A stretch of DNA of 64,000 bases. It comes from Escherichia coli. Its GTDB lineage: Bacteria > Pseudomonadota > Gammaproteobacteria > Enterobacterales > Enterobacteriaceae. The translations under genes and the position numbers were made by a program. The number at the start of each line of letters is the position of its first letter. Position 1 is the stretch's first letter. Under the pieces are notes generated by a model. It worked only from the letters and a program-made list of their open reading frames with translations. It did not search any database and was not told the origin of the DNA. Of this stretch, positions 41,350-43,109 are shown piece after piece. Location of the stretch: NCBI RefSeq assembly GCF_024700885.2, contig NZ_CP117016.1. The stretch is one strand, 5' to 3'.

Positions 41350-41390
41350 GGTGACTGCTCCCCGCCCTGTCGGGCGAGGCTTCCCACTTC

Positions 41391-42560
41391 TTAAGCCGCA
41401 ACCGTCTGTGTGACGGATTTACGCTGGCCTCCATGGGCAGAAACGACGAGTCCCGCCGCTTGTAATTCCAGTATGCCCTTGCGTTTGATGTTGAGCGCCG
41501 CGTTGATATCGCGGTCATGTTCAACTCCACACTCTGGACACTGCCAGATGCGCTTATGTAATGGCATCTCCGACATTTTGTGACCGCAGCAGTGGCAGGT
41601 CTTCGAACTGGCGAACCATTGATCCAGTTTCACCAGATGCACACCTTTCTCTGTTGCTTTGTATTCCAGTTTTGTGATGAATCCAGACCATCCAGCATCG
41701 CCTATCGCACGAGCCAGATGGTGATTTTTCATCATATTTGCCGTTTTCAATGTCTCGACAATTACCGCTTGGTTTTCGTCAACAATTGCGCGAGATAACT
41801 TGTGCTGGAAATCGGCACGGGCACTGGCTACCCGTTCGTGAACGGCTGCAAGTTGTATTCTGGCTTTGCGCCTGTTTGCGCTCCCTTTTTTCTTACGGGA
41901 CAGTGCTTTCTGCTTCCGGCGCAGGTTGCGACTTGCATTGATTAGGTGGCGGGGACTGGCAATTTTATTGCCGTCCGATTTGATGACAAAATGCGCCAGC
42001 CCCATATCCAGCCCTGTCACATTTGATATCAGTGCGGGCTTTGCCGGCGCTTCCATCCCGTCGTCACAGAGTAACGACGCGTAGTATTTCCCGGTTGCGC
42101 TGCGGCTCAACGTGATACTTTTCAGCATTCCCGTAATTTCACGATGTAAACGCGCTTCAATCGGCAAGATTTTCGGTATTTTTATCGCACCATCAAGGAC
42201 TTTTATGCCAACACAATGATAGCTCGATTGTCTGCCGTGTTTACTTTTAAAGGTTGGTTTACCTGCTTTCAGTTTCGGATTGAAAAAGTTAGAAAAAGCC
42301 ACGTCGAGGTTAATTACCGCCTGCTGCAACGCAATAGAATCATATTCTTTAAGCCATCCATACCGGCGGGATTTCTTCGCCACTGCAAGCAGTGGTTTGA
42401 GGTCTTTACGCGGGTTTAAATTTACGCGGTGCCGCTGGTAAGAATGTTTCTTGATATGCAGAGCTTTGTTGTACGCAAAACGCACTGCACCGAACTGGGC
42501 GTTGATAAATTCAGCCTGTTCTGGTGTCGGGTAGATGCGTACTTTTGTTGCTCTTAACAT
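41391..42560 (-). CDS. tnpB: TnpB (OrfB) RNA-guided endonuclease of the IS200/IS605 family, 389 aa
   Basis: 389-aa ORF with C-terminal zinc finger CHCCGHKM...CPECG and RuvC-III-like DRDINAALNI; N-terminal OrfB region MLRATKVRIYPTPEQAEFINAQFGAVRFAYNKAL. Confidence 0.9.
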   Translation of the reverse strand: MLRATKVRIYPTPEQAEFINAQFGAVRFAYNKALHIKKHSYQRHRVNLNPRKDLKPLLAVAKKSRRYGWLKEYDSIALQQAVINLDVAFSNFFNPKLKAGKPTFKSKHGRQSSYHCVGIKVLDGAIKIPKILPIEARLHREITGMLKSITLSRSATGKYYASLLCDDGMEAPAKPALISNVTGLDMGLAHFVIKSDGNKIASPRHLINASRNLRRKQKALSRKKKGSANRRKARIQLAAVHERVASARADFQHKLSRAIVDENQAVIVETLKTANMMKNHHLARAIGDAGWSGFITKLEYKATEKGVHLVKLDQWFASSKTCHCCGHKMSEMPLHKRIWQCPECGVEHDRDINAALNIKRKGILELQAAGLVVSAHGGQRKSVTQTVAA

Positions 42561-42616
42561 AATCAGCGCTCATTGATATAATGCTTTTATTTTAACACCT
42601 TAGGTGAATATATCAA

Positions 42617-43042
42617 TTGAGTAATCATGATGATTTACTGGCGGGATTTCTCCGCAAACGACACAGTGTCAGTAAGCTGGTTGTGCACCTTATTTTTACG
42701 ACAAAGTATCGACGCAAACTATTCGACAGTCAGATGATCGCTCAGTTGCGTGAGGCTTTTGGCTCCGCTGCGGCAAAGCTTGAATGCGAAATTATTGAGA
42801 TGGACGGGGAGCCAGACCATGTACACCTACTGGTTGCCTACCCGCCAAAACTGGCGGTCAGTGTGATGGTCAATAATTTAAAATCGGTATCATCACGTTT
42901 GCTACGCCAGCAGAACGCGCATTTACGTATGCAGAGTAAAACGGGGCTTTTGTGGTCGAGATCGTACTTTGTCTGTAGCACCGGAGGGGCAACGATTGAA
43001 ACGCTCAGAGCCTACGTTCAGAGTCAGTCAACACCTGATTGA
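42617..43042 (+). CDS. tnpA: TnpA Y1 (HUH) transposase of the IS200/IS605 family, about 141 aa, start uncertain
   Basis: Contains TTKYRRKLF, HUH-like HVHLLV and a C-terminal Tyr (RAYVQ); the ORF-track start is TTG; hairpin plus T-run terminator at 43048-43066. Confidence 0.75.
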   Translation: MSNHDDLLAGFLRKRHSVSKLVVHLIFTTKYRRKLFDSQMIAQLREAFGSAAAKLECEIIEMDGEPDHVHLLVAYPPKLAVSVMVNNLKSVSSRLLRQQNAHLRMQSKTGLLWSRSYFVCSTGGATIETLRAYVQSQSTPD

Positions 43043-43109
43043 TCTTTAAAGCCCTGCGGGCTTTTCGCCTTATATCCCCGCCCGCATTGGGCGAGGGTTT
43101 ACGGCGTTT

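Follow-up and report, generated by a model that had tools for sequence, protein, structure and literature searches.

The described systems closest to the locus reported here belong to the IS200/IS605 family of insertion sequences (IS). In IS608 and IS605 of Helicobacter pylori, a Y1/HUH transposase (TnpA) is combined with subterminal imperfect hairpins in direct orientation, terminal inverted repeats and target duplications are absent, and insertion takes place 3′ of a tetranucleotide; IS605 has divergent tnpA and tnpB genes, and the cleavage sites of IS608 pair with guide tetranucleotides as TTAC/AAAG on the left and TCAA/GAAT on the right. ISDra2 of Deinococcus radiodurans, for which TTGAT is both the target and the transposon-associated motif (TAM), has yielded TnpB structures (8BF8/8EXA/8H1J). 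A general transposition mechanism for the family, with one TAM shared by TnpA and TnpB, has been described (PMC10055086), and for the ISGst elements of Geobacillus stearothermophilus the homing model of TnpB/IscB was shown experimentally, as was TAM-guide compatibility for ISGst2 (Meers et al., PMC10055086). Here we analyse ISEc46, an element of this family situated inside the rhamnonate regulator gene rhmR (yfaX) in a stretch of 64,000 nucleotides from Escherichia coli (contig NZ_CP117016.1), hereafter referred to as the window.

Relative to E. coli K-12, positions 41351 to 43113 of the window were a 1,763-bp insertion. When 5,426 complete E. coli genomes were searched by megablast, more than 20 chromosomes contained the 1.85-kb interval at 100% identity, and there RefSeq annotates it as "IS200/IS605-like element ISEc46 family transposase" and "RNA-guided endonuclease InsQ/TnpB family protein". 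In the annotated copies at the rhmR site the flanks were two IclR/helix-turn-helix (HTH) pseudogene fragments, and in a record of this site with 100% identity the coordinates of tnpA and tnpB coincided with the RefSeq coding sequences WP_000064874.1 and WP_000942662.1. By sequence the window element is therefore ISEc46, the name resting on that given to identical copies by the Prokaryotic Genome Annotation Pipeline (PGAP); compared with ISEc46 as labelled by RefSeq, the window copy had the same DNA (100%) and the same rhmR site, with no detectable difference. It is thus an already known and ordinary element, named as an IS and annotated at this very site in RefSeq genomes. The original prediction, made from the window without database searches, of an IS200/IS605-type element inside rhmR was borne out by the profile matches, the clean empty site in K-12 and the RefSeq naming. 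We are highly confident that this is an intact, autonomous ISEc46 with the IS605-like divergent arrangement of tnpA and tnpB, which entered by single-strand insertion an rhmR gene that was probably already dead. The features of the element and its flanks are as follows.

41351–43113, minus strand: complete ISEc46 element, 1,763 bp, from the K-12 alignment and the yebE-ptrB empty site
43114–43117, minus strand: target tetranucleotide TTAG (predicted TAM), which on the top strand directly precedes the left end
43043–43113, minus strand: left end (LE), with subterminal hairpin and AAAC
42617–43042, plus strand: tnpA, Y1/HUH transposase, 141 amino acids, TTG start, Shine-Dalgarno sequence AGGTGA 9 nt upstream
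41391–42560, minus strand: tnpB, RNA-guided endonuclease-family protein, 389 amino acids
41351–41390, minus strand: right end (RE), with hairpin, GAAG and terminal TCAC
41351–41472, minus strand: predicted omega-RNA scaffold, consisting of the tnpB 3′ end and the RE, with helices that include the RE hairpin
41335–41350, minus strand: predicted 16-nt omega-RNA guide CCTTGATCACCAGGAA, rhmR sequence flanking the RE

Alignment of the flanks to an uninterrupted rhmR, which had been proposed together with the prediction, yielded both the exact junctions and the TTAG tetranucleotide. K-12 rhmR/yfaX was contiguous at the site, as the original prediction supposed, and position 8045 of the K-12 locus (L002) adjoined both window 41350 and window 43113, leaving an ambiguity of 1 nt (a C) at rhmR alone. 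Since the copy between yebE and ptrB, compared with K-12, was an unambiguous 1,763-bp insert, the ends could be fixed at 41351 and 43113; the boundaries first proposed, 41350 and 43109, referred to a real element and were 1 and 4 nt off. The insertion split codon 56 of rhmR/yfaX (AG|C), with tnpB oriented as rhmR. Comparison of filled with K-12 empty sites showed no target duplication at either chromosomal site, rhmR or yebE-ptrB, and terminal inverted repeats were absent from the window element, both as foreseen.

The top (active) strand of ISEc46, which is the minus strand of the window and the sense strand of tnpB, reads 5′-CGAAAAACGCC...GCAGTCAC-3′, the ends being also written 5′-CGAAAAAC...GCAGTCAC-3′. 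TTAG abutted the LE at all three independent ISEc46 sites, namely rhmR, yebE-ptrB (L003) and an IMG/VR viral contig (L013), and a sister element had it in the same place at both of its sites (L030, L031). The RE terminated in the cleavage tetranucleotide TCAC (41351–41354), and AGTCAC was the RE terminus in 20 of 20 related loci, with flanks diverging directly after it. Both ends carried a hairpin of the form CCCCGCCC-loop-GGGCGAGG in direct orientation, the stems being identical and having one G-T pair. At the LE it was CCTCGCCC-AATGC-GGGCGGGG (43076–43096), which folded as single-stranded DNA with −19.4 kcal/mol (z = −4.2) and had AAAC (43097–43100) 5′ of it on the top strand; at the RE it was CCTCGCCC-GACA-GGGCGGGG (41360–41379), for which a single-stranded DNA fold was also computed, with GAAG (41380–41383) 5′ of it. 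The same hairpin in direct orientation had been pointed out before, at 41360–41379 and 43076–43097; the second one ends at 43096, and the distance of 10–12 nt estimated for both hairpins from the element ends has to be replaced by 9 nt at the RE and 16 nt at the LE.

The window element thus has the cleavage-site/guide pairs TTAG/AAAC on the left and TCAC/GAAG on the right. By analogy with the rule known from IS608, AAAC and GAAG match the cleavage sites TTAG and TCAC, and AAAC is a putative DNA guide for TTAG. ISEc46 therefore resembles IS608/IS605 in its Y1/HUH TnpA, in its hairpins, in the absence of inverted repeats and duplication, in insertion 3′ of a tetranucleotide and, by that analogy, in the pattern of cleavage sites and guides, and it shares with IS605 the divergent tnpA and tnpB. 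It differs from IS608 in the target, which is TTAG instead of TTAC, and the proteins are only distantly related.

Both open reading frames (ORFs) were placed in the expected TnpA and TnpB families by the profile search that had been named as a test. TnpA matched the full Pfam model Y1_Tnp (1–121 of 121, 6.7e-39) and the NCBIfam equivalog transpos_IS200 (141.3 bits, cut-off 55), and contained the HUH motif H68-V-H70 and a candidate catalytic tyrosine, Y133, in line with the divergent HUH/Y1 protein of roughly 141 amino acids expected from the letters. TnpB matched HTH_OrfB_IS605, OrfB_IS605 and Cas12f1-like_TNB in Pfam and scored well above the cut-off of NCBIfam guided_TnpB (342 versus 100 bits). 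The motifs anticipated for the 389-residue protein were present, namely a zinc finger formed by C322/C325 (CHCC) and C341/C344 (CPEC) and the RuvC-like DRDINAALN (within HDRDINAALN); the protein also had the RuvC triad D185/E270/D351. Residues 4–380 aligned with the ISDra2 TnpB structures 8BF8 and 8EXA (E = 3.6e-74), such that D185, E270 and D351 paired with D191, E278 and D361 of ISDra2 and both CxxC pairs were conserved. The ISDra2 protein is the closest natural solved structure, the only better match being 9yyg (1.4e-80), an AI-designed nuclease. ISEc46 shares with ISDra2 the D/E/D triad, the zinc finger and an omega-RNA expected from the tnpB 3′ end and the RE, which for ISEc46 is a prediction; target (TTGAT versus TTAG), gene arrangement and host differ between the two.

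For the RNA, 24 related loci were gathered from viral contigs, and a consensus fold was derived from an alignment of 14 distinct elements (TnpB identity 70–100%) over their final 165 nt. This fold consisted of 42 pairs in stacked helices ending in the RE hairpin, with 97.1% of the cells paired, compared with 37–53% when the partners were slid, and with compensatory change in 12 pairs, compared with 0–5. None of 500 shuffles matched the observed covariation, and the single-sequence fold of the region gave z = −3.1. Over its last ~120 nt the element thus has a conserved structure with covariation, as would fit an omega-RNA. At the K-12 empty site, TTAG was followed directly by the RE-flanking sequence CCTTGATCACC..., that is, by the predicted guide CCTTGATCACCAGGAA, whose role is proposed by analogy with the published TnpB mechanism (PMC10055086). 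The predicted TAM and the target motif of the transposon coincide, which would make the donor joint a possible substrate for TnpB. In these predicted properties, namely a motif adjacent to the LE shared by TnpA and TnpB, a guide taken from the RE flank and a donor joint that serves as nuclease target, ISEc46 corresponds to the ISGst elements, the model being experimental for ISGst and drawn from sequence for ISEc46.

We propose that ISEc46 entered rhmR by single-strand "peel-out, paste-in" insertion 3′ of TTAG in codon 56, which would leave no duplication. TnpA would recognise the two identical subterminal hairpins and locate TTAG (left) and TCAC (right) via AAAC and GAAG 5′ of the hairpins, as in IS608. 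The active strand would have been on the lagging-strand template during insertion, a bias that is known for the IS200/IS605 family: because the GC skew of the window plus strand is negative (−0.037), the top strand of ISEc46 is the G-rich strand and hence the lagging-strand template. An omega-RNA would be transcribed from the tnpB 3′ end through the RE into the flanking rhmR sequence and load TnpB, which would then cut the donor joint, TTAG plus CCTTGATCACCAGGAA, that is restored on excision. After scarless excision this joint would read ...CTTAG|CCTTGATC..., and its cutting by TnpB would favour retention of the ISEc46 copy.

The host gene had been affected by a second event, which the original prediction had missed. 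The rhmR sequences remaining in the window are:

43114–43280, minus strand: rhmR (yfaX) 5′ fragment, nt 1–167, HTH region, with a translation equal to K-12 YfaX residues 1–55
41024–41350, minus strand: rhmR middle fragment, nt 168–494, 99.7% identical to K-12 L002 7719–8045
41024–41035, no strand assigned: junction of a 1,739-bp deletion, with one 12-bp repeat GCCTGCTCCCAG kept

The two fragments, when joined, translate as YfaX residues 1–164, and the 5′ fragment is annotated by RefSeq as a partial HTH pseudogene. An HTH piece on one side of the element was correctly foreseen and lies at 43114–43280, but the continuation expected below 41349 comprises only nt 168–494, being truncated by the deletion. 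In K-12 the two copies of the repeat are located at L002 5980–5991 (yfaV/rhmT) and 7719–7730 (rhmR), 1,739 bp apart, and the event was a microhomology deletion between these 12-bp direct repeats. The window lacks the interval between the two copies, which comprises 289 nt at the rhmR 3′ end, the whole of rhmD and the initial ~162 nt of rhmT/yfaV. Junction-specific searches of the complete genomes found the deletion junction in 143, the IS at rhmR in 63 and both in 63, which leaves 80 genomes (143 minus 63) with the deletion only. The deletion-only genomes had an intact empty site and, among the matches listed, were 99.1–99.2% identical to the window flanks over 763 bp, none being identical. 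Because all 63 genomes with the IS at rhmR carry the deletion and 80 more carry the deletion alone, the IS probably entered a dead gene. It is very likely that rhmR was already a pseudogene before insertion and that the element disrupts a gene remnant and not a working regulator; the parsimonious order is probably deletion first, followed by insertion of ISEc46 into the remnant.

Full-length ISEc46 was present in 455 of the 5,426 genomes, 63 of them with a copy at the exact rhmR site. Among the E. coli records inspected, the only chromosomal sites seen were rhmR and yebE-ptrB, of which the latter was commoner, and the TnpB WP_000942662.1 was common to both. Elsewhere in the 64-kb window, a BLAST search with the element detected neither another copy nor an isolated end. 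In the yebE-ptrB copies (L003–L006), which correspond to 1.93 Mb in K-12 (L012), the top strand coincides with the plus strand of K-12, and this copy appears to break the lagging-strand-template rule. Plasmid-borne relatives were ~79% identical and often had tnpB only.

In the sister elements L014, L016, L023–L025 and L027 (IMG/VR), the flank was TCAG and the tetranucleotide 5′ of the LE hairpin was GAAC, not TTAG and AAAC; their TnpBs were 82–99% identical to that of the window, with LE regions around positions 240–1400. This covariation of TTAG to TCAG with AAAC to GAAC is what the guide model predicts. When the ~1.5 kb preceding tnpB was searched by tblastn in the 19 close loci, 13 of them gave no tnpA. 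L025 was the single TCAG-flanked element with a tnpA, whereas in the other TCAG-flanked elements the LE hairpin was ~100 bp upstream of tnpB. The ISEc46 clade thus forms a natural series of TTAG/AAAC and TCAG/GAAC elements, many of the latter without tnpA. Should the TnpBs have shifted their TAM preference in parallel, which we regard as a rather speculative idea, the series would be a compact natural case of co-evolution of TnpA guide, TAM and TnpB.

Two further observations concern these relatives. A solo 38-bp RE, which consists of the hairpin and GTCAC and has 100% identity to that of ISEc46, was found at L010 2501–2538 (plasmid pHFQ1 of E. coli HUE1) and in hits H62–H65. On several plasmids it lies, without annotation, between hok and IS debris; its downstream flank is that of the tnpB-only elements L014–L016, and it looks like a truncated remnant. 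A relative with 91% TnpB and 96% TnpA identity occurred as two copies (L017, L018), each with tnpA and with different RE flanks, on one 47-kb viral contig (IMGVR_UViG_2861008536_000002), which suggests that it has been recently mobile.

An assembly artefact was rejected, the same structure being present in 63 complete genomes. The order of events could conceivably be reversed, such that the IS entered an intact rhmR, the 1,739-bp deletion followed, and precise excision by TnpA then removed the IS from the 80 genomes that have the deletion only. Scarless excision is known for IS200/IS605 elements (PMC10055086), and the perfect empty site in the deletion-only genomes is in keeping with it. However, each of the 63 genomes with the IS at rhmR also has the deletion, the deletion-only flanks differ by 0.8–0.9% from those of the window in every match listed, as expected for separate lineages and not for recent excisants, and loss of the IS would be expected to be opposed by TnpB; we therefore consider insertion before deletion improbable. 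Even less can be said for a TnpB domesticated as a nuclease-dead, TldR-like regulator, or for a stray tnpB outside any mobile element. In its favour, the gene occurs as one copy and keeps its position, but its RuvC triad and zinc finger are intact, an intact tnpA and both transposon ends lie beside it, and comparison with K-12 shows a clean insertion. With catalytic residues and transposon ends intact, this explanation was rejected as having hardly any likelihood.

An explanation that deserves more weight, although we still hold it to be unlikely, is that the element is a structurally intact but fixed and vertically inherited relic, which has lost transposition and now serves as a lineage marker. 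The two chromosomal sites, the median of one copy per genome, the 99.6–100% identity among the 63 rhmR copies and the TTG start of tnpA, from which low translation is expected, are all compatible with a relic. The ORFs, catalytic residues, hairpins and guide tetranucleotides are nevertheless all intact, and the occurrence of the same TnpB at rhmR and yebE-ptrB, with a third site in viral contig L013, points to fairly recent movement. Several points weigh against an active element that inserted as proposed. Copies are nearly always single and confined to very few fixed sites, so that in practice ISEc46 may hardly move at all. Most of the compensatory changes in the RNA were contributed by a single diverged clade (L030/L031) and represent few independent events, and a permissive scan of 40800–43600 found no Rfam family matching the predicted omega-RNA. 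No functional study, experiment or expression data on ISEc46 were found in the literature, where it is mentioned only in mobile-element inventories. Finally, within one replichore the yebE-ptrB copy is oriented opposite to the rhmR copy, and the lagging-strand rule is thus not universal for ISEc46. Taking both sides together, we retain the intact, autonomous ISEc46 as the reading of this locus.

Candidate expression signals of the element were also noted:

42554–42616, no strand assigned: divergent promoter-like sites at the tnpA/tnpB spacer, overlapping, consensus matches only
43048–43065, plus strand: terminator-like hairpin AAAGCCC-TGC-GGGCTTT(T), just 3′ of the tnpA stop codon, read from the sequence

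The spacer between tnpA and tnpB is 56 bp long (42561–42616). A consensus scan gave TTAACA-17-TATAAT facing tnpA and TTGATA-16-TAAAAT facing tnpB, these candidate promoters matching the consensus at 11/12 and 10/12 positions and each having an extended −10 TG. The terminator-like hairpin also appeared in the fold of the LE region and was not listed by the consensus terminator scan.

The deletion and the insertion have each created a fusion reading frame. The ORF at 39908–41092 (minus strand, 394 amino acids), labelled "MFS transporter" (major facilitator superfamily) by RefSeq and given there as intact, starts in rhmR-derived DNA; it is a chimera whose start and first ~19 codons derive from rhmR and which lacks the first ~54 codons of K-12 YfaV/RhmT, and it is probably non-functional. 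A 91-codon ORF at 43005–43280 (minus strand) joins the rhmR HTH fragment (55 amino acids) to ~35 codons from the left end of the IS, and expression from the rhmR promoter could in principle yield a free HTH peptide. Outside the rhm locus, the region of the rpnE 3′ end and ypaA (window 38800–38990) gave short matches in the K-12 alignment that overlapped or were duplicated, and rpnE is annotated as 963–972 bp in related genomes, compared with 900 bp plus a ypaA pseudogene in K-12, which points to a small rearrangement difference.

Beyond annotation the importance of the insertion is low, as it concerns a named IS in a host gene that was probably already inactivated. For work on the ISEc46 TnpB, the analysis provides the precise ends of the element, its TTAG target and the predicted guide. 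With rhmD absent, rhmR split and truncated, and rhmT truncated at its 5′ end, the rhamnonate locus is non-functional in this lineage, and the deletion and insertion provide nested lineage markers, present in 143 and 63 of the 5,426 complete genomes, respectively. Judged from its guide, the omega-RNA of the rhmR copy would programme TnpB against the uninterrupted rhmR allele of most E. coli strains; if so, targeting of intact rhmR by TnpB could bar recombinational repair of the locus.

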